Below, in pieces: positions 7,758-57,930 of a DNA stretch of 64,000 nt. Below the pieces are notes generated by a model. The model had not been told where the DNA came from. It worked only from the letters and a program-made list of their open reading frames with translations, and did not search any database. The number at the start of each line of letters is the position of its first letter. Within the stretch, counting starts at the first letter, position 1. This stretch comes from a virus: IMG/VR virus record IMGVR_UViG_2643221865_000002, one strand, 5' to 3'. Position numbers and translations under genes: made by a program.

Positions 7758-8227
7758 CAGTTCGACTCGACACGCTCGTGGAACTGCTCCAACGCCTCAG
7801 CGTCGCCGGGGATCCACGCCTCCACCTCCACACGGATGTGCTGCCCGTCCTCCATCTGCGACGGCGGAGTGTACGGGACAGGCTTCGAGTCGGTGTCGGC
7901 TGGAGCCTCGCCGGGTCGGTAGAACTTCGCTGCCTTCAGCCAGCCGGTGAACGAGAACATGTTCTCGTCGCAGCTGCGGAACGTCAGGTCGGTGATCTCG
8001 TAGTGAGCGAGGTACGCACGGTCGCCTTCATCGTCACGTCCGGTGGGGAACTTCATCTCCACCACCCCGTAACCGTTCTGGTCGAGACGCACGTGCGCGC
8101 CGTGCAGAACCGCCACCTTCCGGTCCGTGAACCGAGGCGGACGAGCCGTTGAGGCGATGACCACCTCGGAGGTTCCTCCGTTGGTGGCGTGGTGGAACAG
8201 CGGGTGGGGCTTCACATTGGTCTCCAT
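7742..8227 (-). CDS. hypothetical protein
   Basis: Internal ATG 8225-8227 (METNVKPHP...). A motif copy ends exactly 8 nt upstream of this ATG. Confidence 0.6.
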   Translation of the reverse strand: METNVKPHPLFHHATNGGTSEVVIASTARPPRFTDRKVAVLHGAHVRLDQNGYGVVEMKFPTGRDDEGDRAYLAHYEITDLTFRSCDENMFSFTGWLKAAKFYRPGEAPADTDSKPVPYTPPSQMEDGQHIRVEVEAWIPGDAEALEQFHERVESNWWVNS

Positions 8228-8232
8228 GGCAC

Positions 8233-8247
8233 CAACATGTGCGGATA
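8233..8247 (-). promoter_or_regulatory. conserved motif copy, CACATG-N8-ATG
   Basis: Upstream of 7742..8227 with no RBS; leaderless-like. Confidence 0.55.
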
Positions 8248-8400
8248 CGCGCATTCCTGCTGTCGGAGTACGGGAAGAAGACCGGCGCGATCATCTGGAC
8301 GCTCCCCCATCGGCGACGGTCGTCGCGGCAGCCGAAGCATCTCAAAGGCGAGGCGGCGCCGGAGGCGACGCCGGTCAGGTGCGGGCGCTGACCTGGGCTG

Positions 8401-8967
8401 TCAGGTGTTCGGGTTCCCGGGTATTGGAAGCGGGAGTTCGATGATCGTCGTCCGGATGTCGTGGAGGTCGGTCAGCGGCACGTCGCCGTACCAGGGGTCG
8501 TTCAGTCCGCGCGGGTCCTGGGAGGTGAAGATGCCTTGGCTGCGGATCCAGTCGAGGTCGTCGCCCATGTATGTGACGCCAGCCTTGTACCCGGTGGCGT
8601 CCTGCTCGACCGGCCAGCGGACGTACTGGCCGTGGTCGTCGATGACGAGGCCGAGGTTGAACGGTTGACCGCCGATCGTGCAGACAGTCTCCGTTTTGAG
8701 GTTCCGTTCCACCCAGTCGAGCGGGACGTCGAAGAGGGTGCTGCCCGGGAACCGGTACCGGTTCCTGTCCAGGTAGGGAGCTGCGGCGCGTTCGGTCACC
8801 CAGCCGAGCTCTGCGGCTTGGGCGGGGCTGGCGACAAGGGCGAGGGTGACGTCCGGCCAGGTCCAGAACATCTGCATGTCCACGTAGAACCAGTGGCCAC
8901 GGACGAGCGCGTAGGTACCGCTGGGCACGACGTCGGCGCCGGGCCAGATCTCCGAGATGTCGGTCAT
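8401..8967 (-). CDS. hypothetical protein
   Basis: ATG at 8965-8967 (MTDISEIW...). Coding looks clean. Confidence 0.55.
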   Translation of the reverse strand: MTDISEIWPGADVVPSGTYALVRGHWFYVDMQMFWTWPDVTLALVASPAQAAELGWVTERAAAPYLDRNRYRFPGSTLFDVPLDWVERNLKTETVCTIGGQPFNLGLVIDDHGQYVRWPVEQDATGYKAGVTYMGDDLDWIRSQGIFTSQDPRGLNDPWYGDVPLTDLHDIRTTIIELPLPIPGNPNT

Positions 8968-10414: not shown

Positions 10415-10430
10415 CCTACATGCGCGGTTG
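10415..10430 (-). promoter_or_regulatory. conserved motif copy (CCGCGCATGTAGGGTG) preceded by CCGAAAC
   Basis: Upstream of 10174..10392. Confidence 0.55.
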
Positions 10431-11094: not shown

Positions 11095-11110
11095 GGACAT
11101 GTGGCGGATC
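11095..11110 (-). promoter_or_regulatory. conserved motif copy (class 2)
   Basis: Upstream of 10451..11056. Confidence 0.5.
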
Positions 11111-11606
11111 AGCGCTTGGCGAGAGTTCCGGCGGGGAGTTTCGGGGACGGTCCAGGCCAGGTTCCCAGCTTGTCCATGCTGTTCAGCTGGTCAGGCGCGA
11201 TGAAGATGACCAGCGGGTCCGGGTCCTTGGCCGGTTCGACCCATCCTCCGTCGGCGAGAGCGTCGGCGATGTTGAAGTCACCGTCGGCTCCGGGGACGAC
11301 TGTGAGGATCAGCCCCTGGTCGGGCTTCGTGTCGTCGACGGACCATGCGAGCTTCAACAGGTACTCGGCGAACTGTTCAGGCTTCTGGACGGTGTACCCG
11401 TCTTCGATGAATGCTGTGACAGCGATGTCGTGCCCGTCACCGAATGTTTCCACGTCCACTGATGTGGATCTGAGACCGGCGATGCCTGCGAGTGCGTCGC
11501 CGGCCGCGACTGCTGTCCCGTTCGACCCGGATGGCGTACATCCCGTCAGCGCGATCAGCAGGGCTGCACCTGCAACGGCTGCCGCGATTCTGCCGGCGGA
11601 TCTCAT
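11109..11606 (-). CDS. lipoprotein (hypothetical)
   Basis: Internal ATG 11604-11606 gives MRSAGRIAAAVAGAALLIALTGC (lipobox LTGC). ATGA overlap with the upstream gene. Confidence 0.65.
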   Translation of the reverse strand: MRSAGRIAAAVAGAALLIALTGCTPSGSNGTAVAAGDALAGIAGLRSTSVDVETFGDGHDIAVTAFIEDGYTVQKPEQFAEYLLKLAWSVDDTKPDQGLILTVVPGADGDFNIADALADGGWVEPAKDPDPLVIFIAPDQLNSMDKLGTWPGPSPKLPAGTLAKR

Positions 11607-12019
11607 GCCGCCGCCTTCGAGATGCTTCGAGGGCCCCACCCGAGCCTGCTGATTTCGTCTGCTGCTGCCAGGAAGATGCTGTCTGGTGCGGCGCTGGCGC
11701 CGACCGTGGAGGTCGCCAGCAACGACGATGTGAGCGAGCCGGCCAGATCATCCCGCGCCTGCGGCGTGGTGACGATCCGGGTGGGTGACCTCCCCCAGCC
11801 TGCGGCACTGACGGCGCCGGCGATCCGGCGGAACTGGCGTCGCTCATGCTCCGGGATGTCGATCCATTCCAGTTCGCCGCCCTGGGATGAGTGCAGCTGC
11901 ACAGCGAGCTCCTCCATCTGTTCGATGGTGGGTTCGGCGATGTCTGGCGTGGCGGTGAACAGGGCGATGATCTCGTCGATCGGGTCGTCGAGGTCTGAGA
12001 GGTCGGCTACGGAAGTCAT
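11603..12019 (-). CDS. hypothetical acidic protein
   Basis: 138 aa. A motif copy ends exactly 8 nt before the ATG. Confidence 0.6.
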   Translation of the reverse strand: MTSVADLSDLDDPIDEIIALFTATPDIAEPTIEQMEELAVQLHSSQGGELEWIDIPEHERRQFRRIAGAVSAAGWGRSPTRIVTTPQARDDLAGSLTSSLLATSTVGASAAPDSIFLAAADEISRLGWGPRSISKAAA

Positions 12020-12023
12020 GAAG

Positions 12024-12040
12024 CTCTCATGTGCGGACTG
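12024..12040 (-). promoter_or_regulatory. conserved motif copy, N8 before ATG
   Basis: Upstream of 11603..12019. Confidence 0.55.
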
Positions 12041-12351: not shown

Positions 12352-15300
12352 TCAGGCAGCGGCCAGCTGCCTTTCTGCTGCGTCGTTGATCGCCGCTTCC
12401 ACGGTGGCGAGAGCCAGCTCGGCTGCGAGGAGTTCGTCCTCCTTCTCGAACACCGCTGCGGCTGCGATCTGCGCGGCGTCGGCTGCTGCGACCGTGTCGG
12501 CGGCAGCCTGGGCACGGAACCGGGCTGCGGCGTCGGCGAGGCTGTCGAGCCAGGCGGTCAGGCGCGTTTCCAGGATCGCGGCGATCTTGTCGTGGTCGCG
12601 GCGGAGTTCCGCCTTCGTGAATGTGATCGTGTGGGCTGTGCTGTACGCGCTGTACCCGACGATGACGCGCGGGTCCTCGTTCCAACGCTTCTCCGCACGG
12701 ACCCGCAAGCCACGCCATCCGGTCGCTCCGATGAAGTCGGAGAACATCTGACGGACCACCGACTGCAGACGGGCGTTGTCGGCCGTGTTGGGTGGTGTGA
12801 CAGCGGCGAGGATGTCCTCGGCGTCGTTCGCCATCCGGGTTCGCTCCCGCGCTTCACGGGTGGCGCGCTCAGCTTCCTGGCGGAGAGCGTTGACGCCTCG
12901 GAGCCAAACAGCACGGACGGTGCGGAGCCGGCGGACCTCGCCGGCGAGTTCGGCTTGGCGCATCAGTTCCGGGTTGCCGGCGGCGATCGCCGTCACTTCA
13001 GCGAAGTTCAGCACCGCTTCGGACACGTCGTCGATCTCGCGGCTGGTGGCTCCGGCGATCATCTGGGAGATGAACCGCTGCTTCCGGGTGAGCGCCTGCC
13101 AGATGTACGAGTCGAAGGACCCTTCGGTGATGTACCGGTAGATCTCCACCTGCCGGGACAGGTTCTTCGGGCGGAGGGCGCGGCCTTCACGCTGCTCGAT
13201 GTCGCTGGGGCGCCACGGAGCGTCAGCGTGGTGGAGGTAGGCGAGGCGGGTCTGGATGTTCGTTCCGACTCCGACCTTCTCGGTGGATCCGATGAGGACG
13301 GACACGGCACCTTCTCGGCACTGTGCGAACAGGTGGGCGCGGGCCTTGTCGGTGGCGGCTTCGTGGATGAAGCGGACCTTGTCGGCGGGGACGCCGCGCA
13401 TGGCGAGCATCAGCCGGAGACGGCCGTAGGACTGGTTCTCGTTCGGGCGGGGCGTTCCGAGGTCGCACAGCACCAGCTGGAACGCTCCGGTGACGGGCGA
13501 GTTGCCGAAAGTCCGGTCCTTGTCGCGGTGGTGGAGCCGGGCGACGTTGTCGGCGATCGCGGTCAGTTTCGTGGAGTCTTCGTCGAGGTTGACGAGGCGG
13601 GGGTCGAGGGCGACTTTCCGGCCGTCGTTGCAGACCATCAGCATGTTGTCGAACACACTGCCGATCTGACGCTTCACTCCGTTGCGGATGTCGTCGGAGC
13701 GTTCCGCGAGCTCGCGGACGAACGCAGCCTGGTTGTCCGACTGCAGCGAGACGATGTTCTCCCAGGTGGCGTCCGGGCGTTCCAGGCCGATCTTGTCGGC
13801 GGTGAGCAGGTCAGCGGACTCGGCGAGCATCGTGGAGAGCTCCGGGACGTTCTGCATGACGGAGGGACGGCGGTACATCCGGAACGAGGACCCGTCGGGG
13901 GTGACCTCCACACGGGTTTCGTAGCGGACGAACGTGGCAGCCCACTCATCGAACGATGCGACGCCCGCCTCTTCCAGACGGTTAGGTTGGAGGTACTTCT
14001 GCCAGACGTACGTCTCCGCGAGGGTGTTCGTCCACGGGGTGCCGGTGAACAACGCGACGATCGGCTTGCCGGGGTACCGGTTCGCGAGGGTGTCGATCTT
14101 CAGCAGCAGGTCGGTGGCGCGCTTCGATGAGCCGAGGGAGAACCCTTCAGCGCGGGTGGCGACAGCCAGACGCTTCGCGTAGTGGGCTTCGTCGTAGCTG
14201 ATGTGGTCCACGCCGAGCAGCTCGAAGGTGATCTGGTCCCGGTCGGTGACCTTGTCGCGGAGCTCAGCAACACGGTTGCCGAGCTTCCGGATCTGCGCGG
14301 CGACGTTCTTCGCGCCGGCTGCGGAGCTGTTCTTCTCCATCAGGTGCCAACGGAGGTCAGCCTGCTGTCCGGCGACCCAGTCCTCTTCCACCTGCGGGTC
14401 GACACCGATGGAGGTGAACGCCTGGTGGGTCATGACCACGGCGTCCCAATCGCCGGTGGCGCAGCGTGCAGCGAACAGACGGCGTGCGTCTTTCGCGAGG
14501 TCGTCCTTGGATGCGATCAGGAACCGGGCGGCAGGGTACGCCTGCTGCGCTTCGCGGGTGATCTGGTCCAGCAGGTGGTTGGGGACGACGATCATCGGCT
14601 TGTTGGCGAGGCCGAGGCGGCGAAGGGTGAGGGCCCCACCGATCATTGAGAGCGTCTTGCCGGAACCGACGGGGTGGCCGACGAGGACACGGTCCTGCGA
14701 CACGACACGGTCGATCGCGTCCCGCTGCCACGACCACAGCTCGATGCTGTCGTCCATGCCGGGGAACGTCAGGTAGGAACCGTCGCCGCGGCGGACGACG
14801 TGGGAGTTGAACCGACGGTTGTACTCGGCGACGATCCGGTCGGATCGTTCCTGGTCCTCCCACACCCAGGTGGCGAAGTGCTCCTGGATCTTGCGGAGCT
14901 TCTCCTCGGCGGCGAGCGTCTCCACCTGGTTCCGGATGCGCTTCGTCCCGTTGACGGTCACCTTGTCGTCGTAGACGACCGGGGACTTGCCGTTCAGGCC
15001 GCATTCCAGCAGGCGGGTCGCCTGAACGCGGGTGGTTCCGTACTCCAGGGCAGCCTGGTAGTTGACGCCGCCGTCCACTTCCCACAGCGCCGCTGCGGGG
15101 GTGTGGGTGACGGTCGCCCAGCCGTGGAACAGGTACTTCGCGAAAGCTTCGACGTCGGAGGCGGGGATCCATGTGACGCCCAGCTGGACGCGGATGTCGA
15201 ACGGGCCGAGCACGGCGGGAACGACCTCGGTGAGAGCGTCGACGTTCCTCTGGAACACCGGGTCTGTCTCCGCTGCAGTGCGGGCGGCGGCGAGCTTGTC

Positions 15301-17153
15301 GCGGACGTTGCCGGTCAGGTAGTCGCGGGCGGTGACATATGCGCCGGCGGTGGGGTCGTTGAAGATCAGGCCGGCGAGAGCGCTGACCGCTTCAGCTGCC
15401 GAGGGAAGGCCGAGCAGCTCGGCGGTGCGGTCCAGATCCACCCGGCCGGTCTCGCCGAGGGTGACAGCGAGAGCTTCCTGGGGTGTGGCTGCCGTCTCCG
15501 TCTTCACGGGGCGGTGGGTGACCCGGCGGAGCAGGATCGGGGCAGGCGCAGCCTCGCCGGTGTCCTGGTCGAACCGTTCCAGCGCGAACGCGACTGCGGC
15601 GTCCGGGTCTCGGCGGAACCCGCCCATGGTGGGACGGACCCACGTCTGGGAGAACTCGCCGGTTTCCGGGTCGACCGCTCCGATGCGGAGCTCGCCGCGG
15701 TTCAACGGTCCGAACGCAGCACGGTAGGACTCGTACAGATCAAGGGTGCGGCTGCGAGTGTCGGCGATGGCCTCGTCGGGAAGGTCGAGGTTCGCTTCCA
15801 TGCTGATGAGGTCGAGGGCAGCGTCGCGGAGGCCGATCAGGTGGGTGAGCTCCGCTGCAGCCCGTGCGACGGGGGTCGCGGCGCCGTTGATGACACGGTG
15901 CACCTTCCCGTCGATCAGGTGGAAGGAGCCCTCCTTGCGGCCGACAGGGTCGGTGAGCACCACATCGTCGAGCGGGTCGGTGATCTCCACGACCGGCTCA
16001 ACGGTGATCATCTGGCGGGCTGCGTTCCCGGCTGCGACGATGGCGGTGTCGATGTCGTCGGCGCGGACGTCCAGCGGGACCTGCGACCAGTTGGTTGCGG
16101 TCAGGGTTCCGGCGACGCAGCCGGGGTTCTCCTTCCAGAAGGAGGAGATGTCGACGCTGTGGAATCCGGTGCGGACGGTGTAGGAGTCGTCGCCCCAGAA
16201 GTCCTGGTTGTAGAGGCTGCCGCGGTTCACCTTGGCGGGCTTCCAGCCGGTGACGGTTCGGGCGCCGCCGCGGCGTCGGAGGACGATGATGTCGGCGACA
16301 ACCTTCGTGCCGGTGAACGCTCCGCTGGGGAGACGGATGGCGGTGACGAGGTCGGCGTTCTGCTGGAGGAGTTCCAGGTTGGCGGGGGTGTCGAGGACGT
16401 GGCGGCTGGTGGCGGCGATGACGTATCCGCCGGGTTTGACGGCGTCGAGGGCGCGGACCAGGAAGTAGGAGTGCAGGTTGGGTGCGTCGTAGGTGGGGTC
16501 GAAGACGCCGGTGTGGGAGAACGGGACGTTCCCGATGACGGCGTCGAACCCGCCGGCCTTGAAGACCACCTTCTCCAACGGCTTGTTGATGATCGTGGCG
16601 TCCGGGTTCAGCGCGGCGGCGATGCGTGACGCGACCGGGTCGATCTCCACACCGGTCCAGTCGACATCCCAGGAGGTCGGGATGGCGGACATGAAAGCAC
16701 CCGATCCGCAGCCGGGTTCCAGGATCCGGCCGCCGGTGAATCCGGTGGCGGCGAGGAGGGAGAAGACGGTGTCGGCGACCAACGAACCGGTGTAGAAGGA
16801 CGTGTCGACGACGGTGCGGACGACGTCCAGTTCAGCTTCGGGGACGAACACGTCGATCAGGTCGGCCACTTTCGCCCAGCCGCCTTCCGGTCGCATCGCG
16901 AGAGCCGGAGAGAGCGGGCCCCAGCCGGGCCAGGCTGACAGAGCGGCGCGCTGCTCCTCGGTCGGGTTTCCTTCCAGAGTCGACAAGGCATGGAGCGCGT
17001 CGATAGCGATCTTGGGAAGGGAGGCGCTGGTCACAAGCTGTCCGATCTGGAAGGTGGGGTTCGCAGGGTCACAGCTGCGATTTGATTCCCCTCCTACATG
17101 CGCGGACGGCCTCGGATCTGCCGAGTGTCGCGGAATCAGTTCGGAGGCGTACA
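12352..17153 (-). CDS. N6-adenine DNA methyltransferase fused to SNF2/DEAH-type helicase (about 1600 aa; mobile-element type anti-restriction methylase-helicase)
   Basis: MTase motif I LEPGCGSGAFM and motif IV-like VIGNVPFS. N-terminal NPTEEQRAALSAWPGWGPL segment is typical of this family. Helicase Walker A VGHPVGSGKTL, DEAH box ISYDEAHY, and C-terminal motif VI QREGRALR. The start is uncertain (ATG about 17153 or a later GTG); the ORF-track N-terminal 65 aa are probably not coding. Confidence 0.85.
17093..17109 (-). promoter_or_regulatory. conserved motif copy followed by AGGAGGGG
   Basis: Lies inside the ORF-track N-terminal region of the methylase-helicase gene. This suggests the true start is downstream of 17090. 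Confidence 0.45.
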
Positions 17154-20516: not shown

Positions 20517-20532
20517 CCAACATGTGCGGACC
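20517..20532 (-). promoter_or_regulatory. conserved motif copy
   Basis: 26 nt upstream of 19956..20492. Confidence 0.55.
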
Positions 20533-23764: not shown

Positions 23765-23780
23765 GTCATGTGGCGGACGG
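23765..23780 (-). promoter_or_regulatory. conserved motif copy (class 2)
   Basis: Upstream of the BNR gene. Confidence 0.5.
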
Positions 23781-25422: not shown

Positions 25423-25430
25423 GCCGGAAA

Positions 25431-25447
25431 GCCATGTGGCGGAATGG
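25431..25447 (-). promoter_or_regulatory. conserved motif copy (class 2, N10 before ATG of LRV gene)
   Basis: In the divergent region with the HAD gene. Confidence 0.5.
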
Positions 25448-25458
25448 TGCACGGCCCT

Positions 25459-25475
25459 CCCCGCCACATGTCTCC
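25459..25475 (+). promoter_or_regulatory. conserved motif copy in plus orientation (CCCGCCACATGTCTCC, N10 before ATG 25481)
   Basis: Its orientation follows the plus-strand HAD gene. Confidence 0.5.
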
Positions 25476-25480
25476 CGGCC

Positions 25481-28003: not shown

Positions 28004-28019
28004 TCAGACATGTGGCAAG
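28004..28019 (-). promoter_or_regulatory. conserved motif copy (class 2)
   Basis: Upstream of the RCC1 pilin-like gene. Confidence 0.5.
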
Positions 28020-29105: not shown

Positions 29106-29120
29106 CCTCATGTGCGGAGC
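29106..29120 (-). promoter_or_regulatory. conserved motif copy
   Basis: Upstream of 28681..29052. Confidence 0.5.
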
Positions 29121-35646: not shown

Positions 35647-35650
35647 AAAC

Positions 35651-36682: not shown

Positions 36683-36694
36683 CCGGAGGAAACC

Positions 36695-38565: not shown

Positions 38566-38580
38566 GGACATGTGGCGAAG
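38566..38580 (-). promoter_or_regulatory. conserved motif copy (class 2)
   Basis: Upstream of 37847..38503. Confidence 0.5.
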
Positions 38581-38623: not shown

Positions 38624-38640
38624 TCCGCGCATGGAGGAGG
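38624..38640 (+). promoter_or_regulatory. conserved motif copy in plus orientation, N8 (=GGAGGAGG) before ATG 38642
   Basis: Sequence match. Confidence 0.55.
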
Positions 38641-38641
38641 T

Positions 38642-40768: not shown

Positions 40769-41086
40769 TCACCAGTCCGCTGATACGTCCCCGCCGCTGA
40801 AGTAGTCACCGACGCGGGCGCCGTCGTAGGTGTGCTCGCTGACGATCACCCAGCCGTCCTTGCCGCCCCGGGTGATGTCGAGGCGGTATTCGTCGTCGAC
40901 GTAGTTGGTGAGCGGCATCGTCACGCTGCAGTTGCCTTTGCTGTCGTAGGCGGCACATGTGGTCGACACGTACGTGTACGCCGGTTCGTAGTGCTTCCCG
41001 GTGATGGTCCCGGAGGAGATCGGGGAGCAGGCGGCGAGGGCCGCGACGGCCAGGGCAGATGCGACGACGGTGAGGATCTTCTTCAT
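40769..41086 (-). CDS. lipoprotein (hypothetical)
   Basis: MKKILTVVASALAVAALAACS contains a lipobox. RBS GAGGGAGG. A motif copy is spaced 8 nt before the ATG. Confidence 0.65.
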   Translation of the reverse strand: MKKILTVVASALAVAALAACSPISSGTITGKHYEPAYTYVSTTCAAYDSKGNCSVTMPLTNYVDDEYRLDITRGGKDGWVIVSEHTYDGARVGDYFSGGDVSADW

Positions 41087-41092
41087 GCCTCC

Positions 41093-41106
41093 CTCATGTG
41101 CGGACC
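41093..41106 (-). promoter_or_regulatory. conserved motif copy, N8 before ATG
   Basis: Upstream of 40769..41086. Confidence 0.55.
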
Positions 41107-41133: not shown

Positions 41134-41388
41134 CTAGTCGATGATGTCGCCGACGTTGGCGAAGTGCCACACCGTCTCGGTGACGTACACCCAGCCGCGG
41201 CGGCCGTGGAAGTCGACGTCGAGGCGGTACTTCGGGCGGCGGGTGCCGTTGAACTCCACCACCTTCGTCAGGATCCGGCCGCGGCGTGTGCGAGGTGCGT
41301 GGAAGACGGTGTGAAACGCGCCGGCGATGAAGGTGATCGAAACGGCTGCGACCAAGGCTGTAACGGTGTTCTGGCGTGGGGTGCTCAT
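41134..41388 (-). CDS. small membrane-anchored protein, paralog of 40769..41086 C-terminus
   Basis: Shared C-terminal region YRLD...GWV.V.E..........GD. Confidence 0.5.
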   Translation of the reverse strand: MSTPRQNTVTALVAAVSITFIAGAFHTVFHAPRTRRGRILTKVVEFNGTRRPKYRLDVDFHGRRGWVYVTETVWHFANVGDIID

Positions 41389-41395
41389 GCTGTCA

Positions 41396-41410
41396 AGACA
41401 TGTGGCGTTT
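41396..41410 (-). promoter_or_regulatory. conserved motif copy (class 2, N10)
   Basis: Upstream of 41134..41388. Confidence 0.5.
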
Positions 41411-41724: not shown

Positions 41725-41743
41725 CACCTCCATGTGCGGTCTG
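41725..41743 (-). promoter_or_regulatory. conserved motif copy
   Basis: Upstream of 41410..41700. Confidence 0.5.
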
Positions 41744-43744: not shown

Positions 43745-43808
43745 GCGACTTCTCCTTTCAAGAGGGAACGTGCGAGTGGGTCACACCGGGCGGTGTGGCA
43801 TGCGGGTG

Positions 43809-43837
43809 GCATGTGGCGGTACCTTCATGTGCGGCAT
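43809..43837 (-). promoter_or_regulatory. two adjacent motif copies (gcatgtggcggt and cttcatgtgcggcat)
   Basis: Upstream of the flotillin gene. Confidence 0.5.
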
Positions 43838-44493: not shown

Positions 44494-44513
44494 GGGGGGG
44501 GGGGGGGGGGGGG
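44494..44513. repeat. homopolymeric G20 tract (C20 in gene sense) between motif and RBS/start of 43932..44465
   Basis: Counted directly: ggc + 20 g + tcc. Confidence 0.8.
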
Positions 44514-44514
44514 T

Positions 44515-44530
44515 CCAGACATGTGGCAGC
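44515..44530 (-). promoter_or_regulatory. conserved motif copy (class 2) immediately followed (gene-sense) by the C20 tract
   Basis: Upstream of 43932..44465. Confidence 0.5.
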
Positions 44531-45349: not shown

Positions 45350-45865
45350 TCACAGGACGGCTGAGGCCGGCTCGTAGAAGTTCAGGGGGTTGCTGATCCG
45401 GTCCAGGTGAGCTTCCGCCGTTCGTGACAGGTGGGGGCGGAGGATGCTGGAAGCTCGGAATGACTGGAACAGCGAACCGAGGACTGCGGCGGTGGCGGCT
45501 GGGATGCCGAGCACGAGGATGACTTTGCTGGTGTCGTCGGCGAGGGCAGTGATGGATGGCGCTTCGAACACTCCGGCGTACACGGCTGCGAAGTCGGCGA
45601 CGATCCCGACGGCCACTCCGACGGCCCAGCCGAGGTTCCGGTCGACCCGTTGCAGGTGCGTCTCCACGTCGTTGCGGCTGGCGAGCTGCATCCACCGTGC
45701 GGGCGCCCAGTATTCCTGGGTGAGGTCGTCGAGGGTGACGGCGAGAGTTCCATGCTGGAACCGTTCGACGTTGACAACTTCCCGGACTCGTCCGTCGCGG
45801 ACGACGAGGGTGCCGGCGGCCAGTTCAACGGGGACGGTCGGTGCAGTCGGGTCGTACGCGGTCAT
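45350..45865 (-). CDS. membrane protein (hypothetical)
   Basis: ATG 45863-45865 lies exactly 8 nt after a motif copy. The ORF-track N-terminus is His/Arg junk. Confidence 0.55.
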   Translation of the reverse strand: MTAYDPTAPTVPVELAAGTLVVRDGRVREVVNVERFQHGTLAVTLDDLTQEYWAPARWMQLASRNDVETHLQRVDRNLGWAVGVAVGIVADFAAVYAGVFEAPSITALADDTSKVILVLGIPAATAAVLGSLFQSFRASSILRPHLSRTAEAHLDRISNPLNFYEPASAVL

Positions 45866-45870
45866 GAGGC

Positions 45871-45885
45871 CTTCATGTGCGGTCG
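45871..45885 (-). promoter_or_regulatory. conserved motif copy, N8 before ATG, preceded by CCGAAACC
   Basis: Upstream of 45350..45865. Confidence 0.55.
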
Positions 45886-46377: not shown

Positions 46378-46390
46378 GGCATGTGGCGGG
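46378..46390 (-). promoter_or_regulatory. conserved motif copy (class 2)
   Basis: Upstream of 45910..46338. Confidence 0.45.
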
Positions 46391-46827: not shown

Positions 46828-47280
46828 CTATCCCTCGTAGGTCCACAGTTCCAGGTCGCAGCGGTACTCCGCAGCCACCTTCTCCAGCACCGGGAGGGCG
46901 TCCTCCCAGACGAGGCCGCCGATACCGCAGCCGATCTGCGGCAGGGCGATGCGGGTGATGCCGTTCTGGTCGGCGTGCTGCAGTGCGGCGCGTGTGCCGG
47001 TCTCCAGCCAGTCGAGGGAGGCGTTCGGGCCTGTCTGGTCCTGGGAGGCGATGTTGTACACCGCGGGGAGCTCCTCGGTTGCCGGCCAGAAGAACATCCC
47101 ACCGGGGATGAGGGCGCCGGAGCGGCACACCTTCGCGTACGCGTCGAACATGCCGGCGAACCGGAGACGGAACACGTTCGCGATGCCGGCGTGCATGGCG
47201 CCGACAACGTTCACCCCCTGCCCGAGTGCGGGTGCGTCAGAGGTGAAAAGGTCGCCGGACTTGTGGGTCACTGTGGTCAT
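46828..47280 (-). CDS. macrodomain protein (ADP-ribose binding/hydrolase-like)
   Basis: GQGVNVVGAMHAGIA and IALPQIGCGIGGLVWEDAL resemble the macro motifs (VNAAN..GGGV and IAFP.ISTG.YG). The ATG is 8 nt after a motif copy. Confidence 0.55.
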   Translation of the reverse strand: MTTVTHKSGDLFTSDAPALGQGVNVVGAMHAGIANVFRLRFAGMFDAYAKVCRSGALIPGGMFFWPATEELPAVYNIASQDQTGPNASLDWLETGTRAALQHADQNGITRIALPQIGCGIGGLVWEDALPVLEKVAAEYRCDLELWTYEG

Positions 47281-47284
47281 GACA

Positions 47285-47299
47285 CCTACATGTGCGGAC
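47285..47299 (-). promoter_or_regulatory. conserved motif copy, N8 before macro gene ATG
   Basis: Sequence match. Confidence 0.55.
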
Positions 47300-48247: not shown

Positions 48248-49066
48248 TCAGCGGATCTTGTCGACGAACGCGATGAGCAGTCGCCGCCACAACGGGAGCG
48301 GTTCCGGCTTCCGGGCGCCGGAACGTGCTCCCCCGATTGAGTATCCCCGTCGCGCTGCACCTCCTGGTATCAGTTGCAGTTTCGGGAAGATCTGCGCCGC
48401 GTGCTTCCCCGGGTACTTCATGGTCAGCTGCTCGTATTCGGCACGGGATGTCGCAACCCCGCCGATGAAGTCCGCTGCTCGCTTCGCCGTGTGCGCGTCA
48501 TGGATTTCGTCGACGATGATGAACCCGAGCTCTGCGGCTTTGCGTGCCTCGTCGCCGTCGATCAGAACACCGTGGTACCGGTTGGGGCGGTCGGGATGCC
48601 ACCGGTCTACGATCGCGGCCACCTGATCCTTGTAAGTCTGGCCTTCCTCGCCTTTCATGGATGCCGGCTTCTGGAGAGCAGCGACGTCGCTGGCGATCCG
48701 CGCGTTCACCCGGTCGAAGTACGCGGCCTCCCAGGAACGCCCCTGCCGGGTCCGGGCTTCGAGGCGATGGAAGACGCCGGTCGGTTCGCCGTTCTGAGGG
48801 GCATCCGGTGTAGGTTCCGGCTGGACAGGGATCGGGGTGGTCGCGGGCGCCTCCGTTGCAGGCTGGACAGGCTCAGACATGGGCGCCTCAGCCGCAGGCT
48901 GCACGACGACCGGAGCGGTCGGTGTCGTGTCCACGGTCAGCTGCGGGAGCCCGGCATCCGGGTTCAGTACCTGGCAGTTTTCGCCGTCCCAGTGGAATCG
49001 CTCCACCGTGCATGCTGAAGGGTTCGGGCAGATGACTGCCTTCGACCTGTACGACGTGACCTGCAT
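48248..49066 (-). CDS. hypothetical protein with N-terminal Cys cluster and Pro/Thr-rich linker
   Basis: 272 aa of clean coding. Confidence 0.55.
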   Translation of the reverse strand: MQVTSYRSKAVICPNPSACTVERFHWDGENCQVLNPDAGLPQLTVDTTPTAPVVVQPAAEAPMSEPVQPATEAPATTPIPVQPEPTPDAPQNGEPTGVFHRLEARTRQGRSWEAAYFDRVNARIASDVAALQKPASMKGEEGQTYKDQVAAIVDRWHPDRPNRYHGVLIDGDEARKAAELGFIIVDEIHDAHTAKRAADFIGGVATSRAEYEQLTMKYPGKHAAQIFPKLQLIPGGAARRGYSIGGARSGARKPEPLPLWRRLLIAFVDKIR

Positions 49067-49222: not shown

Positions 49223-51424
49223 TTACTCCGCTGCCACCTTGCGGCGGCGGACCATGAGGGCTGCGCCGCCGAGGAGCATCAGAGCGGCAACACCGAGGAA
49301 CGGTGCGCCCTCGAAGCCGAGGCCGGGGATGACATCGGTGCTGTCACCGGCTGCGGCGACTGTGATCTCGGAGATGAGGTACTCGACACCGTCCTCGTCC
49401 ACGAAGTACAGGTGGTGCGTACCAGCGGGGGTGTTGAGGGGAATCGTCACACTGGCCTCGACCTTGCCGTCGGAGTCGGCGGTGAACGAACCTAGGGTGA
49501 CCGGGTTGGACCTGAGGACGACGGTGACATCCGAATCGGGCGCGAAGCCGCTTCCGCTGACGGTGATCGTCGCGCCGGCGTTTGTCGTCCCCTCTTCCAT
49601 CCCTCCGGGCGGGTTGACGGACACTGGCGGCCTCACAGCGACCCCAAACCGCTTCGCCATGGAGCCCTCATCGTTGAACGCGGTGACTGTGAAGTCGTAC
49701 AGTCCGTACTTGGTGGGCGTGCCGGACAGTACACCGGACTTGCTGAGGGTGATACCGGCGGGCAGGTCGCCGGAGCTGACCTCCCACTGGACGTCCTTGT
49801 CAGAAGTCAGCTGCTTCGAGTAGGGGACACCCTGCTGCATCTTGCCGAGATCCCTAGTGGTAGTGGTGATCACCGGGTTGCTCTTGCCGCCGTCGTGGTG
49901 ACGGGTGACTGTTCCGCGGTAGACCTGCTCGTCGGTGTCGTCGGTCTTCTCCTGGCTGCCGATGACAGCGAAGTCGTAGTATCCGCCGTACGCCTCGTCA
50001 CCGTACTCAACGGTGCCGGACAGGGTTGCCGTTTCACGGTTGAAGGTCAGACCTGCGGGCAGGGTGCCGTCCGTCTGCCAGAAGTCCACGTTGGTGCCGG
50101 TGAACGTGTGGTTGATCTTCTGTCCGGCGGTCAGGTTGCCGAGAGCGTAGCCGTCGACGACGGGCTTGCCCTTCTTGACGTTGATGGAGAAACCGTTGAA
50201 CACGCGGGTCTCACCGGCGGCCGGGTACCGCGTGTTGGACGCGATGACGTTGAAGCTGACGTTCCCGACCTTCGTCGGGGTGCCAGTGATCATGCCGACG
50301 CCGTGCTTGTACTTGAAGGTCAGACCGGCGGGAAGGGTGCCTTCCAGGGTGAGCGTCTCCTCGTAGTTCGCGACGATCGCGGCCGAGTACTCCTCGCCGA
50401 CGCGGGCGGTACCAGTGAACTCGGTCTGCTCGCGCGGGAAGTTCGGCAGGCCCTGCAGGGCAGTGCCGTAGAGAGTCTTCTCGTACTGCTGACCGCCGAC
50501 CGTTGCGTTCAGGGTGATGCCCCAACCGCCGTAGGTCGTGAACAGACCGTCGAGGTAGAACTTGCCGCCCTGCTTGACGATGGACAGGTCGTAAGTGTCG
50601 GAATCGCTGCCGAACGTGACGTTGGTGGCTCCGGGAACGTTGATCAGTTCATGGGCCTGCGCGCCCTGCTCGAAGGTGAACGTCTCGCTCATCCACGGGT
50701 CTTCCGGCTGCGCCTCAGCGATGTGGATGGTGAACGTGTGGGGGGTTCGGAGAGTCCAATCCGGTCCGACCGCCACCAGGGTGAACGTGTAGTCGCCCGC
50801 CTTGGTTGGGGTGCCGAAGATGGCTTTCCGTTCAACGTCGAGGTTGAGTCCGGGCGGGAAGTTGAAGCTACCGTCGTTCTCTTCGACCGACATGGAGCCG
50901 TTCCAGTTCGTCGCTTCGAGCTGGAAGTAGTACGGGGAGCCGACCGTTCCGGACGGTTCTGTGAGGGAGAGCCACACCGGGTGGTAGTCGGGAGCCTCGA
51001 CCCTGGTGACGGTGCCGGTGAACGTCTGGTCGGACGTCCCCTCAGCGCCGTCGGAGGCGGTGACGGTGAACGCGTACGCGCCGGGGACGTCGGCGACGGT
51101 GCCGGTGAGGTGGCCGGTGCTGTCGACGTTCAGGCCGAGGTCTGCGACGCTGGCGTCCGCGGCGGCGTAGGAGACGGCGCCGGCCGCCATCAGGTAAGAG
51201 TCGACGGTGTCGCCGACAGTCAGGTCGCCGACGGCGTTGGGCTGGGACATCCACGTGATGCCGGTGCCGCTACCGGGGCCGCCGGGGAGGCCACCGGGGC
51301 CGCCGGGGAGGCCACCGGGGCCGGAGGCCATTGCGGGAGTGGCCGCGAAGATCGTGGTCGCAGCGACGGCTGCTGCGGCGAGGGCGGCGCCGAAACGGCG
51401 ACCGCGGGTCAGAGTGCTACTCAA
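49223..51424 (-). CDS. cell-surface protein with putative Ig (He_PIG-like) repeats, Tat-like signal and C-terminal TM anchor
   Basis: TTG start after RBS GGAAGGA. TRGRRFGAAL is a twin-arginine-like signal. Repeats GTPTK(A/V)G.Y.F.(V/L). The C-terminus LGVAALMLLGGAALMVRRRK is a TM anchor. Confidence 0.55.
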   Translation of the reverse strand: MSSTLTRGRRFGAALAAAAVAATTIFAATPAMASGPGGLPGGPGGLPGGPGSGTGITWMSQPNAVGDLTVGDTVDSYLMAAGAVSYAAADASVADLGLNVDSTGHLTGTVADVPGAYAFTVTASDGAEGTSDQTFTGTVTRVEAPDYHPVWLSLTEPSGTVGSPYYFQLEATNWNGSMSVEENDGSFNFPPGLNLDVERKAIFGTPTKAGDYTFTLVAVGPDWTLRTPHTFTIHIAEAQPEDPWMSETFTFEQGAQAHELINVPGATNVTFGSDSDTYDLSIVKQGGKFYLDGLFTTYGGWGITLNATVGGQQYEKTLYGTALQGLPNFPREQTEFTGTARVGEEYSAAIVANYEETLTLEGTLPAGLTFKYKHGVGMITGTPTKVGNVSFNVIASNTRYPAAGETRVFNGFSINVKKGKPVVDGYALGNLTAGQKINHTFTGTNVDFWQTDGTLPAGLTFNRETATLSGTVEYGDEAYGGYYDFAVIGSQEKTDDTDEQVYRGTVTRHHDGGKSNPVITTTTRDLGKMQQGVPYSKQLTSDKDVQWEVSSGDLPAGITLSKSGVLSGTPTKYGLYDFTVTAFNDEGSMAKRFGVAVRPPVSVNPPGGMEEGTTNAGATITVSGSGFAPDSDVTVVLRSNPVTLGSFTADSDGKVEASVTIPLNTPAGTHHLYFVDEDGVEYLISEITVAAAGDSTDVIPGLGFEGAPFLGVAALMLLGGAALMVRRRKVAAE

Positions 51425-51622
51425 AGGTGGATCCTTCCAGATAGGTGGGGTGGTGCATGTTGGGCGGTGATCCGCCGATGGCTTCATTCGCAGTGCAGCG
51501 CAGCACCAGGCAAATCCGGCGCTCCGACATTGCCACGTCGGTCATCTAGGTGTGCGGTGACGCACAGACCGTGCCGTGCACTGGGGGTGCGAGTGCGGCC
51601 TCCAGACGGTGGGCCTCGGCGA

Positions 51623-51967: not shown

Positions 51968-51982
51968 CCCACATGCGCGGAT
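51968..51982 (-). promoter_or_regulatory. conserved motif copy (CGCGCATGTGGGTAGTGAC)
   Basis: Upstream of 51623..51940. Confidence 0.5.
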
Positions 51983-52925: not shown

Positions 52926-52940
52926 ACCATGTGCGGAGCA
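52926..52940 (-). promoter_or_regulatory. conserved motif copy
   Basis: Upstream of the second macro gene. Confidence 0.5.
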
Positions 52941-54138: not shown

Positions 54139-54152
54139 TTCATGCGCGGAGC
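54139..54152 (-). promoter_or_regulatory. conserved motif copy
   Basis: 27 nt upstream of the HTH gene ATG. Confidence 0.5.
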
Positions 54153-55478: not shown

Positions 55479-55516
55479 GTGCGGTCCTTCAGGTTGGCTT
55501 ATCCGTCACCTTCATG

Positions 55517-55533
55517 CGCGGAGTTGCCCGGAA
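55517..55533 (-). promoter_or_regulatory. conserved motif copy (TCCGCGCATGAAGGTGAC)
   Basis: Upstream of 55242..55478. A second CCGCACATG overlaps that start codon. Confidence 0.5.
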
Positions 55534-55543
55534 TCACCCAACC

Positions 55544-56515
55544 TCAGCTGTTCCCCTTGATGACGTTGCACCACCAGTGGGCTGCCTGCAGGTTCTCTGC
55601 GGTGTGGCCTCCGTCGACGGTGACGGCTTGGATGTGGTCGAGGGTGACGGACCACGGGTCCGGATGCTGGAGTGTCTTGTCGATCTCGGTGCCGCAGATC
55701 CCGCACATCCAGTCGCATGCTTCGTACACGGCTTGCGGGTCGACGTAGTCGGCTTGCGGGTCGATGTGCCCAGCGGCGCGGGCTCTGGCCAGGTAGGCGC
55801 TGCGTGCGCGGGCGGCCCTGGATAGGGAGTGGCGGGCTGGCGTCCACAGGGACTGCGGCTGCACTGGGGAGAACACGTACGCTTCCCAGCGGTAGTCGTT
55901 GCCGTGCTCGTCGACGTCGGAGATGAGCTCCCGGGCGAACCACGTCTCCGGGTCGTCGAGGAATGCGGTGCGGTGCGGCAGCTCGAACAGGTCGGCGCCG
56001 ACTCCGATCACCGGGAGGGTCAGCATGCTGGGCCGGTAGTCAGGGCCGACGGCGACGAGGCCCCACATGTCGGTGCCGATGAGGTCTGCCACCATGACGG
56101 TGTCCGGGGAGGCCATGCCGGTCAGGTACCCGGCGGCGGCTGCGTGCCCGTGATGCTCCGGTTCCAGCAGCGCGTATGAGGTGATGAGCCCGTGCCGTTC
56201 GACGGCGTCGCCGGGTTTCGGCCACCGGCCATGCTCGTACGGGAACTCAGCATCCATGTTCGTGCGGAAGAACTGCGGTCCACGGGCCGACTCTTCAGCG
56301 CGCGCTTGAACCTTCTCCGGCCGAGGTGCAGGAATCACGGTCCCTGGCCTGTCGAGGGTTCTGCTGATGCTGCGGCGCAGGTTCGCGTTGCACCGTGGGG
56401 AGCAGACATGCCGGTCCCGCTGCTTCCAGTGCGCCTTGGCGGGGATCGGGTTGCCGCACTTCACGCACGGTTCGCCGCCTTTCGCCCGGGTCGGCTGCTT
56501 CAGCATGTCGTCCAT
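55544..56515 (-). CDS. HNH endonuclease domain protein with N-terminal zinc ribbon
   Basis: The C-terminus CGICGTEID...LDHIQAVTVDGGHTAENLQAAHWWCNVIKGN is an HNH motif. Confidence 0.7.
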   Translation of the reverse strand: MDDMLKQPTRAKGGEPCVKCGNPIPAKAHWKQRDRHVCSPRCNANLRRSISRTLDRPGTVIPAPRPEKVQARAEESARGPQFFRTNMDAEFPYEHGRWPKPGDAVERHGLITSYALLEPEHHGHAAAAGYLTGMASPDTVMVADLIGTDMWGLVAVGPDYRPSMLTLPVIGVGADLFELPHRTAFLDDPETWFARELISDVDEHGNDYRWEAYVFSPVQPQSLWTPARHSLSRAARARSAYLARARAAGHIDPQADYVDPQAVYEACDWMCGICGTEIDKTLQHPDPWSVTLDHIQAVTVDGGHTAENLQAAHWWCNVIKGNS

Positions 56516-56582
56516 GGCGTCGAAGTAGTCGTCAGCGTCGATCGTGCATCTCCTCAGTCGGTCGGGATATTCTCTCGCGGTT

Positions 56583-57911
56583 CTAGGCGTCGAACTCGCA
56601 GAGGTAGCGGACGCGGACCTGGTTCGTATCGAAAACGATGGCTTCGTGGTTCCGCACTCCAGCGGTCCCCGGCTTCACGTTGATGGAGTTCCACGGCTTA
56701 CCGAACTTGTTGACCGTGGAGTGGGCTTTCGGCCAGTCGGAGTAGTGAGAGGGACGGTACTCGGATCCCATCGCTACGTCGTTGAGGAGCATGAAGCAGT
56801 TGTTGTCTCGGCCGCCGGAGGTCCAGTAGCCATTCGAGTAGTTGAGGCTCTTCGTAGAGTCGAGCGAAAGATACAGACCGTCGCCGAACATGCGCCCGGC
56901 GATCTGGATACCTGAACCTGACCGCGGCGGGACGAACAGCCCCTTCTGGAGGATGGAGAGCAAGTTTGCGGCGCGGGTCCCGTGCCACATCTGCTGCTCG
57001 TTTCGGATCTCCGCAGCGATCCTCTTGTAGGTGGCGGCTCCGACCGGATCGACAAGCTCGAAGACATGCTTCAGGTTCAACTTGGCTGACGTGTGCATGC
57101 CGTTCTTCGTCTTCGCATACCGCTCTTCGATCCGCTTGAAGACGGCCCCGCCGTCGGCGACGGCGCGAACCTTGTACTTGAAGAGGTTGTCGTATTCGTT
57201 GCCGTCGACGTCGTCGATCGCTGCGGTGGTGGCAGCGGCGAGCTGGGTGTTGAAGAACTGGACGGAGTCGCGGAGGGAGTCGAGCAGCTCGTGCTGCTTC
57301 TGGAAGGTGTTGTCGCGGTTGAAGAATGTGGATGCCCATCCGGCGTTGCGGCCGATGTTCTGGGGGACGAGGGTGAGGTAGTCCTCCAGCAGCCGGGTGC
57401 TGGAGGTGTCTTTGACGCCGCCGGCCTGTTCGATCTGCGTGAGGAGGCCGCGGGCTTCGCTGATGGAGTAGTTGGTGATCAGGCCGAGCGGAGTCTTCAC
57501 CTGGCCGCTGGTGTCGACGGTGATCTTTCCGCCGGAGAGGGTGGCGATGTCGTGGGCGTTCACACGACAAATACGCTCGATCAGGTCAGCGACTCGGGTG
57601 TCGGTGCGGGCCTTCCCCTTCGTCAGGGCAGTCTTCGCGATCGTGGTGATCTGCGTGTTCGCGGCCACTGACGTGGTCGCTGTGGGCGGGGCTGCGATCG
57701 CGACCTTCTTGTAGCCCTTCCGCTCCTTCGCGTAGACGGCGTTGTCGAAACCGAGCCGTCCGGTCTTCTCAATAGACATCTGACCGTCGGCGCCGACACG
57801 ACCCCAACGCTTCGTCACGGTGATCCCATCCGAGGACAATTTCACCTCGTAGAACTTGTTGTTGTTCGCTTGGGAATCCACGTAAATCAGCATCGTTGTC
57901 GTCTCATTCAT
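56583..57911 (-). CDS. poly(ADP-ribose) polymerase homolog: WGR domain + helical domain + PARP catalytic domain
   Basis: WGR: KFYEVKLSSDGITVTKRWGRVG. Catalytic: MWHGTRAANLLSILQKGLFVPP, GRMFGDGLYLSLDSTKSLNYS, HEAIVFDTNQVRVRYLCEF (the H-G-S/T...Y...E signature of PARP1). The ATG is 8 nt after a motif copy. Confidence 0.8.
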   Translation of the reverse strand: MNETTTMLIYVDSQANNNKFYEVKLSSDGITVTKRWGRVGADGQMSIEKTGRLGFDNAVYAKERKGYKKVAIAAPPTATTSVAANTQITTIAKTALTKGKARTDTRVADLIERICRVNAHDIATLSGGKITVDTSGQVKTPLGLITNYSISEARGLLTQIEQAGGVKDTSSTRLLEDYLTLVPQNIGRNAGWASTFFNRDNTFQKQHELLDSLRDSVQFFNTQLAAATTAAIDDVDGNEYDNLFKYKVRAVADGGAVFKRIEERYAKTKNGMHTSAKLNLKHVFELVDPVGAATYKRIAAEIRNEQQMWHGTRAANLLSILQKGLFVPPRSGSGIQIAGRMFGDGLYLSLDSTKSLNYSNGYWTSGGRDNNCFMLLNDVAMGSEYRPSHYSDWPKAHSTVNKFGKPWNSINVKPGTAGVRNHEAIVFDTNQVRVRYLCEFDA

Positions 57912-57913
57912 GT

Positions 57914-57930
57914 CACCTACATGTGCGGAC
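57914..57930 (-). promoter_or_regulatory. conserved motif copy, N8 before PARP ATG, preceded by CCGAAAAC
   Basis: Sequence match. Confidence 0.55.

Follow-up and report, generated by a model that had tools for sequence, protein, structure and literature searches.

The late promoters of phage T4 consist of a single extended -10 element, TATAAATA, which is read by the minimal sigma factor gp55. Those of the sigma28 (FliA/WhiG) type combine a -35 element, TAAA, with a -10 element, GCCGATAA, across a spacer of about 15 nucleotides (nt). Cluster A mycobacteriophages carry dozens of stoperators, asymmetric repressor sites that lie in short intergenic gaps and are oriented with transcription, at no fixed distance from the start site or the start codon. 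In the cluster K mycobacteriophages and the cluster EF Microbacterium phages, the start-associated sequences (SAS) and their extended form (ESAS) provide a conserved motif directly upstream of many starts (PMC3203893, PMC7302621). Leaderless translation is widespread in Actinobacteria (PMC5741613), and the sigma32 promoters of E. coli have the extended -10 element CCCCATNT (PMC6687850). We compare with these systems a motif that is repeated along a stretch of 64,000 nt (hereafter the window), the IMG/VR virus record IMGVR_UViG_2643221865_000002. The window belongs to Leifsonia sp. Leaf264 (Microbacteriaceae), a strain in which a protein encoded on a 701-kb NCBI contig matches the window's helicase (33958-35646) exactly. 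The repeats are probably the promoters of a large mobile-element region, in which a -10-like element would fix the start of transcription and give leaderless or short-leader mRNAs.

Counts, placement and anatomy of the repeats

An earlier note on this DNA had described the motif as CACATG, standing at exact distances from start codons. As a bare hexamer it is weakly enriched (43 copies against 29 expected); the true units are longer and form two classes. The class-1 word is T-CCGC[AG]CATG, with 25 copies in the window, and the class-2 word is GCCACATG(T/C)C(T), with 13. We counted 18 copies of the exact sequence CCGCACATG, all but one on the minus strand, which carries nearly all genes of the window. 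The distances were seen correctly. Eight start codons lie immediately after the eight nucleotides (N8) that follow the CATG (8227, 12019, 35646, 41086, 45865, 47280 and 57911 on the minus strand, 38642 on the plus strand), and four follow class-2 copies at N10 (25422, 25481, 41388 and 60956). The wording at 38642 needs correction: the N8-ATG spacing is right there, and the sequence is CGCATG with the spacer GAGGAGGT, not CACATG with GGAGGAGG.

We found ten matches to CRCATG-N8-ATG, compared with 0.64 +/- 0.86 in 100 dinucleotide shuffles, none of which reached ten, and four matches to GCCACATG-N10-ATG where 0.03 were expected. The shuffles exclude a chance origin of the N8 and N10 spacing. Of these ten N8-ATG matches, those at 6919 and 43799 do not mark gene starts: the first lies at a class-2 site and is out of frame, and the second belongs to a tandem motif. 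The placement of the sites is equally skewed. Gene interiors make up about 78% of the window, and against this background 24 of the 25 CCGC[AG]CATG sites are intergenic and co-oriented with the downstream gene (binomial p ~3e-15), as are all 13 GCCACATG sites (p ~3e-9). Co-orientation holds on both strands and includes five plus-strand copies. There are around 40 promoter-like sites for around 72 genes, and they stand, as promoters do, upstream of genes or operons and in the same orientation. Scans of IMG/VR with the two motif patterns returned isolated single matches only, similar to random background; they were uninformative and gave no hint of such elements among the viral sequences.

Two other functions were considered and rejected. 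Processing by a MazF-type enzyme at ACA does not fit because the CGCATG variants have no ACA, and a methylation or restriction site at CATG does not fit because a palindrome leaves the bias in strand and orientation unexplained.

To describe the anatomy of class 1, we aligned the 23 credible window sites on the motif, counting from a predicted +1 directly after the N8. The conserved positions are a T at -18, CCGC[A/G]CATG at -17 to -9, W-A at -8/-7, and GG at -6/-5. With this numbering CATG occupies -12 to -9, so that its A is in register with the A at -11 that is universally important in the -10 elements of the sigma70 family. The +1 is a purine in 23/23 sites and -1 is usually a pyrimidine, the combination commonly found at transcription start sites. 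A weaker upstream element, C-R-R-W-W-n-C (CGAAAnC), lies at -32 to -26, with A or T at -29 in 21 and at -28 in 22 of the 23 sites, despite the 65% G+C of the window. The N8 is followed by ATG in eight genes and otherwise by a G or A that opens a stereotyped leader (GAGAAGAAGGAG or GACAAAGAAGGAG). These leadered copies begin GA(G/C)AAGAAGGAG and have a Shine-Dalgarno (SD) sequence, GGAG, 6-9 nt ahead of the start codon, in agreement with the earlier remark that some copies are followed by a leader and a ribosome-binding site. About half of all motif copies are away from start codons, at 20-120 nt. In class 2, the position after N10 is a purine in 12 of 13 copies and opens an ATG in four. The two classes share CCRCA at -17 to -13, at an equal distance from +1, and differ at -12 to -8, which reads CATGn in class 1 and TGTCT in class 2.

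The repeats in related elements

Homologs of the window's helicase led us to five loci of related elements, with helicase identities of 50-71%, in which the genes follow the syntenic order DUF2637, J-domain genes, helicase, and methyltransferase-helicase. All five have the same architecture at orthologous genes, each with its own wording. In the closest relative (L004, helicase 71%), class 1 reads CCTGCGCATG-N8 and class 2 reads GCCGCATGTCT with N10. Three relatives at 55-58% (L005, L007, and L305) have tGCCGCGCATG-N8, the N8 being followed by [AG]TG, and GCCGCATGTCT as class 2. In L304, from Agromyces sp. (50%), the words are CCGCGCATG-N8 and GCCGCATGTC with N10. Counting the window, the helicase gene has a class-1 site and is predicted to be leaderless in 6/6 elements, with an orthologous promoter and start in the five relatives. 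The DUF2637 gene is also predicted to be leaderless in 6/6, its promoter being conserved in the five relatives (as class 2 in L304), and the gene divergent from it has a class-2 site in 6/6. In alignments of the helicase gene and of the DUF2637 divergent region, conservation is confined to the motifs, their spacing, and the start codons, and the rest of the upstream sequence is unalignable. Other genes give similar results: the L004 ortholog of the gene starting at 41086 has CTGCGCATG-N8-ATGAAGAAGATCCTC, and the methyltransferase-helicase orthologs of L007 and L305 start at a GTG placed at motif+N8.

The earlier note had proposed comparing start positions between orthologs, and this comparison agrees with the motif. 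The helicase N-termini (MT[IML]T) match the motif-defined ATG in eight of the aligned homologs, and the DUF2637 proteins start at motif+N8 or N10. The window and the five relatives together have 75 class-1 sites. In 74 of them a purine stands at the predicted +1, 68 have a pyrimidine at -1, and 37 have ATG or GTG at +1, a statistic of sequence. A start codon coincides with the predicted +1 in 12 window genes and at 29 class-1 sites of the relatives.

The geometry extends further than the words. In L306, from Agromyces subbeticus (helicase 46%), we found GCCGCGCATAT and GCCGCCCTTAT-N7-ATG, and in the Curtobacterium megaplasmid pS16 (546 kb, helicase 42%) gCATAg-N7. We counted 130 CATA copies in 141 kb of pS16, of which 36 are followed at N8 by a start codon, with C at -1. 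Hence, these distant relatives keep the geometry while the wording drifts. A further 80, more distant helicase loci (from Streptomyces, Agromyces Root81, Psychrobacter, and others) gave no N8 peak.

Candidate functions and candidate readers

The reading of the motif as a -10-like element with the transcription start at the start codon, already put forward in the earlier note, agrees with every test that we ran on the sequences. RNA polymerase would open the DNA at C-12 A-11 T-10, and transcription would begin at a purine placed at a fixed distance past CATG, exactly 8 nt in class 1 and 10 nt in class 2; we infer these starts at N8+1 and N10+1. Where this purine opens an ATG (or, in the relatives, a GTG), the mRNA would be leaderless and translated without an SD. 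Elsewhere, the transcript would open with the conserved GAGAAGAAGGAG-type leader, which would supply one. The N8-ATG and N10-ATG genes are plausibly leaderless because this mode of translation is well documented in Actinobacteria. Several lines of evidence argue for promoters: the intergenic and co-oriented position of the sites, their exact distance to a Y(-1)R(+1) step, the conserved initial transcribed sequence, a terminator before one copy, and the conservation at orthologous genes.

Some points weigh against this interpretation. The usual actinobacterial -10 is marked by T at -12 and -7, neither of which the motif has. A search for a sigma or polymerase gene able to read the motif gave none in the window, in the 20-kb loci of the relatives, or in 241 kb of pS16. 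The N8 spacer of the window is G-rich and SD-like (wwGGTGay), which alone would allow a short-leader reading. Finally, alternative starts are plausible for three of the 12 predicted leaderless genes (8215, 45913, and 25452). The motif is indeed not the canonical actinobacterial TANNNT, of which only A-11 is in register: every site has C at -12, and -7 is unconserved. It shares with the leaderless actinobacterial promoters a start codon at the predicted +1, an A 11 nt upstream, and a predicted independence from an SD. It differs from them in its C-A-T-G/A core with a GC-rich upstream extension of 5-7 base pairs (bp), and in being near-invariant over 9-11 bp within each element, whereas housekeeping promoters are degenerate. 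In 20 kb scanned for sigma70-consensus promoters we found none (1.3 expected). A count of TANNNT-N6/7-start gave no peak, but it is crude and underpowered even in Streptomyces control loci, so that some canonical promoters may be present.

The G-rich spacer raises the question of whether the motif acts in the RNA, as a SAS-like translation-initiation signal in the 5' leader with the N8 as ribosome-binding site. SAS are likewise highly conserved motifs before many start codons of mobile genomes in actinobacterial hosts, including phages of Microbacteriaceae hosts (PMC7302621; PMC3203893), and the window's N8 often contains AGGTG, GGAGG, or GGTG, complementary to the 3' end of the 16S rRNA. We regard this as highly improbable. 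SAS occupy the position of the ribosome-binding site and are themselves complementary to the 16S rRNA, whereas here it is the stretch 9-19 nt ahead of the start that is conserved, at exactly N8 or N10, and the spacer is not conserved between elements. In the relatives, it is pyrimidine-rich or random, without SD complementarity (e.g., TCTCTCGC and TTCTGGCC), and the spacing is identical. Within the window, only 1-3 nt separate the G-runs of class 1 from the ATG, which is too short a distance for a working SD; genes without a motif have theirs (of GGAG or GAAGGA type) at 6-9 nt. Since GGTG also follows the motif where no start codon stands (10419, 20521, and 41731), the G-run seems to be part of the promoter, in its discriminator region, and not a ribosome-binding site. 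Anti-SD pairing is all but absent from the class-2 N10 spacers (-0.9 to -2.6 kcal/mol over the full -20 to -1), and the many copies far from start codons have no place in a SAS-like scheme. Another explanation that we consider very unlikely, if slightly less so, is that the motif binds a regulator encoded by the element, in the manner of stoperators, the true promoters being elsewhere. It would account for dozens of near-identical, asymmetric, co-oriented copies in short intergenic gaps, and the element does encode a protein with three helix-turn-helix (HTH)-like repeats (53547-54113). Yet regulator sites do not require the exact distance to Y-1/R+1 and to start codons, which points to initiation; no other promoter-like sequence was seen in these short gaps; the spacing rule persists across elements whose wording has changed; and the HTH-repeat protein has no homolog in the examined loci of the relatives.

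If the repeats are promoters, the next question is what reads them. The factor would be of the sigma type, and the housekeeping sigma is a less likely candidate than one dedicated to the element. The scans with Pfam and NCBIfam found no sigma or polymerase domain among the window proteins, and tblastn with RpoD, ECF, and FliA over about 470 kb of element DNA gave no match, with approximate queries, the ECF one being an invented generic sequence. In the annotation of 341 kb of pS16, the only sigma factor is the FliA ortholog inside the flagellar cluster. That no sigma gene was found in the element DNA examined would be expected if the promoters were host-general, i.e., read by a chromosomal sigma of Microbacteriaceae (a housekeeping one with an unusual -10 or a shared alternative such as a sigma28/FliA-type factor), the element being merely rich in strong copies. 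Housekeeping-like genes such as fliM, nrdF, and one for an SPFH protein are also preceded by the looser gCATAg-N7 of pS16, these replicons come with flagellar genes and a fliA-type sigma, and the nearest -10 shapes are the GC-rich extended ones of sigma28 and sigma32. With such group-3 sigma promoters, the repeats share a long GC-rich -10 ending in (C)AT, a start some 7-8 nt downstream, and an A/T-containing upstream element (GAAA) nearer than the -35 of sigma70. Neither consensus is matched: the sites read CCGCRCATG or GCCACATG, with CGAAAnC about 10-12 nt upstream, and the -35 spacing is of about 12 nt, not 13-15. Actinobacteria are also not known to have RpoH. The likeness to sigma28 and sigma32 promoters provides leads, not memberships.

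Other observations make a host-general reader doubtful. Each element has a motif of 9-11 bp that is nearly invariant within it and differs from that of other elements, even between the two from Agromyces (L304 and L306), and degeneracy is the norm for housekeeping promoters. The N8 peak is absent from L008 (Agromyces Root81), a Microbacteriaceae locus that does not belong to the family. The candidate sigma28-type sites beside flagellar genes, CCGAGTAG, CCGATAG, or GCCCGATAG, have the style of a GC-rich extended -10 and are unlike the element motif. Because of this near-invariance within elements and difference between them, the sequences favour an element-specific reader over a host-general one, at somewhat better than an even chance. 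Phage T4 offers a comparison. As with its late promoters, the relatives have a single element of 9-11 bp near -13 that is reused dozens of times and appears sufficient, with no conserved -35; the sequences are unrelated, the window's element is accompanied by a weak upstream one, and no gp55-like or other sigma gene was identified.

The flagellar genes deserve a note of their own. The 546-kb plasmid pS16 carries a complete flagellar cluster, including fliA, and the candidate sigma28-type promoter CTACG-N15-CCGAGTAG stands upstream of its flgB and flagellin genes (L314 40800-46250). In Leaf264, the candidate GCCCGATAG is found upstream of flgN (L307 20340-20470).

More broadly, it is possible, and we propose it tentatively, that large mobile replicons and islands of Microbacteriaceae run most of their genes from a two-class promoter code of their own, with C-A-T-G/A at -12 to -9, read by a sigma-like protein or a polymerase that shows no detectable similarity to known sigma families and co-evolves with the wording, about half of the transcripts being leaderless. 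The members of this family would include elements of Leifsonia and Agromyces, Curtobacterium megaplasmids, and uncultured relatives.

Individual sites, gene starts and the surrounding element

The sites are listed in Table 1. For an independent view of gene starts we used the calls on contigs of the Logan assembly of run ERR1103913, presumably made by Prodigal; this assembly covers positions 1-44516 of the window and breaks at a homopolymer. The Logan caller agrees with the motif-derived start at 12019, 35646, 38642, 41086, 47280, 25481, and 41388; for the helicase, both this call and an NCBI-sourced homolog have 562 amino acids (aa). It differs at 8227, where it chose GTG 8215 (after what would be a 12-nt leader), at 45865 (GTG 45913, with a GTGA overlap), and at 25422 (GTG 25452). 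The motif decides neither between 8227 and 8215 nor between 45865 and 45913. It argues against the extended start at 25452 and against that at 17172, called by Logan for the methyltransferase-helicase gene, whose class-1 site lies downstream both of this start and of the one in the list of open reading frames (ORFs; 17349). It also supports the starts at 41700 and 52897.

Table 1. Motif copies in the window, in order of position, with their predicted starts and genes
Position	Strand	Site	Gene or start codon
3933..3941	-	class 1, leadered	
5628..5636	-	one-mismatch class-1 variant CCGCCCATG + N8 + G	upstream of gene 4032..5576
5687..5695	+	class 1, leadered, +1 G, GAAGAAGAAC...	gene 5749..6114
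6930..6937	-	class 2, leadered	
8225..8244	-	class 1, CCGCACATG + N8 TTGGTGCC + ATG 8227	predicted leaderless gene 7742..8227
10419..10427	-	class 1, +1 G opening GAGAAGAAGGAG leader	ATG 10392
11098..11105	-	class 2, leadered	ATG 11056
12017..12036	-	class 1 + N8 AGAGCTTC + ATG 12019	predicted leaderless gene 11603..12019; Logan start identical
13394..13402	+	motif copy	inside methyltransferase-helicase gene, opposite strand
17097..17105	-	class 1	1600-aa methyltransferase-helicase gene
20521..20529	-	class 1, GAGAAGAAGGAG leader	ATG 20492
23767..23774	-	class 2	BNR/sortilin-repeat gene
25420..25483	both	divergent class-2 pair, GCCACATG on each strand, 37 bp apart	N10 + ATG 25422 (-) and 25481 (+)
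28009..28016	-	class 2	RCC1-repeat gene
29109..29117	-	class 1, leadered	gene start 29052
31797..31805	-	class 1, leadered	gene 31089..31757
33870..33878	-	class 1, leadered	downstream of strong terminator-like hairpin 33910-33944
35644..35663	-	class 1 + N8 + ATG 35646	predicted leaderless UvrD-type helicase gene 33958..35646
38569..38576	-	class 2, divergent from DUF2637 class-1 promoter	pairing kept in five close relatives
38625..38644	+	class 1, CCGCGCATG + N8 GAGGAGGT + ATG 38642	predicted leaderless DUF2637 gene 38642..39562
41084..41103	-	class 1 + N8 + ATG 41086	predicted leaderless; small secreted-type protein (MKKIL...)
41386..41406	-	class 2, GCCACATGTCT + N10 from CATG + ATG 41388	Logan start identical
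41731..41739	-	class 1, leader GACACACAAGGAG...	ATG 41700
43799..43834	-	tandem: class 1 (43826-43834), class 2 (43810-43817), CCCGCATG copy	upstream of SPFH/flotillin gene (TTG 43744)
44494..44527	-	class 2 (44520-44527), predicted start inside C20 homopolymer 44494-44513	ATG 44465
45863..45882	-	class 1 + N8 + ATG 45865	alternative upstream GTG 45913 overlaps previous stop (Logan choice)
46380..46387	-	class 2, leadered	GTG 46338
47278..47297	-	class 1 + N8 + ATG 47280	predicted leaderless macro-domain gene 46828..47280
51972..51980	-	class 1, GACAAAGAAGGAG leader	ATG 51940
52928..52936	-	class 1, leadered	ATG 52897, second macro-domain gene
54141..54149	-	class 1, GAGAAGAAGGAG leader	ATG 54113, 188-aa protein with three HTH-like repeats
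55513..55521	-	class 1, leadered	ATG 55478
57909..57928	-	class 1 + N8 + ATG 57911	predicted leaderless PARP gene 56583..57911
57965..57973	+	one-mismatch class-1 variant CCGCTCATG + N8 + GAAGAAGACC leader	gene ATG 58020
58486..58494	+	one-mismatch class-1 variant CCGCACGTG + N8 + G	gene 58528
59781..59804	+	class 2, predicted +1 G 3 nt before ATG	ATG 59802
60954..60974	-	class 2 + N10 + ATG 60956	GNAT acetyltransferase gene
61015..61023	+	class 1, leadered	collagen-repeat gene, ATG 61091

Some copies call for comment. The intragenic one at 13394..13402 is probably due to chance and outside the system. A second copy near 55513, at 55476-55484, is fortuitous: the real start, ATG 55478, happens to lie within it, has GAAGGA in front of it, and is served by the promoter at 55513. 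Clear terminators are scarce in the window. One of them is the hairpin at 33910-33944 on the minus strand, with 15 pairs and a T-rich tail, which stands just past the stop codon of the helicase gene and precedes the next class-1 promoter by 32 nt. The three tandem copies at 43799-43834 fit within 36 nt. The C20 run at 44494-44513 (G20 on the plus strand) is 29 nt upstream of ATG 44465, and the Logan assembly, from the same strain, breaks there; it could be a length-variable tract that affects expression. On the minus strand, CCGCACAC occurs at 49110-49117 and 51550-51557, in both cases intergenic and upstream of genes (48248..49066 and 49223..51487); these copies resemble class 1 without the CATG and may be degenerate promoters.

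The over-extended N-termini that the earlier note had reported in the ORF list are present (44522, 35655, 47301, 31793, and others), but they are an artefact of the listing and not biology. The listing takes the first ATG, GTG, or TTG after a stop, and ORFs start in or upstream of the motif because ATG and GTG occur within it and its reverse complement opens with CATGTG. This also explains some of the spurious plus-strand ORFs attributed to the motif: those at 28010 (MW) and 11101 start in its reverse complement, whereas the one at 6889 (LLDV...) starts 40 nt away from a motif, and those at 49110 and 51550 start in the CCGCACAC variant, not in CACATG. Two more plus-strand ORFs, at 12029 and 12031, start in or upstream of the motif.

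The region itself looks like the cargo and backbone of a large mobile element. Profile scans show that it encodes the UvrD-type helicase, the 1600-aa methyltransferase-helicase, the DUF2637 protein, and four J-domain proteins, together with a PARP, two macro-domain proteins, an SPFH/flotillin protein, proteins with Ig, BNR, RCC1, and collagen repeats, and an HNH nuclease. The PHROG and Pfam scans of the window proteins found no virion genes (capsid, tail, or terminase), and a prophage reading is unsupported for this reason. On the left, the element region reaches its limit about 8 kb outside the window, at flgN and flgK. The FliA ortholog of Leifsonia sits on a 4.27-Mb contig, and Leifsonia FliA homologs are found on chromosome-sized contigs, which suggests that the region is an island in the chromosome. 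This is weakened by pS16, which has its whole flagellar cluster on the plasmid. A megablast search against phage and plasmid collections gave a single match, of 71%, to a Curtobacterium megaplasmid; it spans 42523-43686, mostly inside the flotillin gene, and is the sole stretch with nucleotide similarity to such a plasmid. Scans of IMG/VR and of a genome collection with the helicase peptide gave no match, nor did exact searches with the PARP and collagen-repeat proteins.

Several genes of the element are of interest in their own right. The four J-domain genes are successive paralogs (31852-37819, minus strand), each encoding an N-terminal J (DnaJ) domain and an uncharacterised C-terminal region, and one or two such genes stand beside the helicase in every related element. 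The PARP (56583-57911, minus strand) is a full one, with WGR, regulatory, and catalytic domains. With the macro-domain proteins at 46828-47280 and 52424-52897 (both on the minus strand), it forms a writer/eraser set for ADP-ribosylation, and all three genes have class-1 promoters. The HTH-repeat protein of the minus strand has three similar repeats (GVxxxxRxxGVSxxxxRKELxRRG) and also a class-1 promoter upstream. ARAGORN called an 88-nt tRNA-Val(GAC) at 5829-5916 on the minus strand, overlapping a coding ORF of the plus strand; it is probably a false positive, and an Rfam scan of the window at gathering thresholds found neither a tRNA nor any other family. Some 6.3 kb to the left of the window (L307 18592-18670), a class-1 promoter with N8-ATG precedes an 18-codon ORF, whose stop overlaps (GTGA) the GTG of a 129-aa ORF. 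Possibly the short ORF is leaderless and its translation is coupled to that of the longer one downstream.

Leaderless genes in Actinobacteria are already known, as are promoter words specific to an element. To our knowledge, and in the searches that we ran, a two-class promoter code conserved across large elements of Microbacteriaceae, with its reader missing, has not been described. Querying the literature with the raw motif strings gave nothing beyond primers and similar matches, and among the papers searched there was no study of transcription starts in Microbacteriaceae. If the interpretation as promoters is true, the motif would provide a rule that places gene starts and transcription units to the single base. 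The elements concerned, from plant-associated Actinobacteria, are poorly annotated; they can be as large as a 546-kb megaplasmid, and more than 80% of their genes are hypothetical. The rule already corrects or questions automatic starts, such as those of the methyltransferase-helicase gene and of the genes at 25422 and 41700. A promoter off the standard actinobacterial -10, with no sigma gene nearby, points to a new transcription specificity factor. If their activity were confirmed, the motifs, at about 20 bp, could serve as small promoters for leaderless expression in Microbacteriaceae, each with a defined start. Since Leaf264 is a cultured strain, the question is accessible to experiment.

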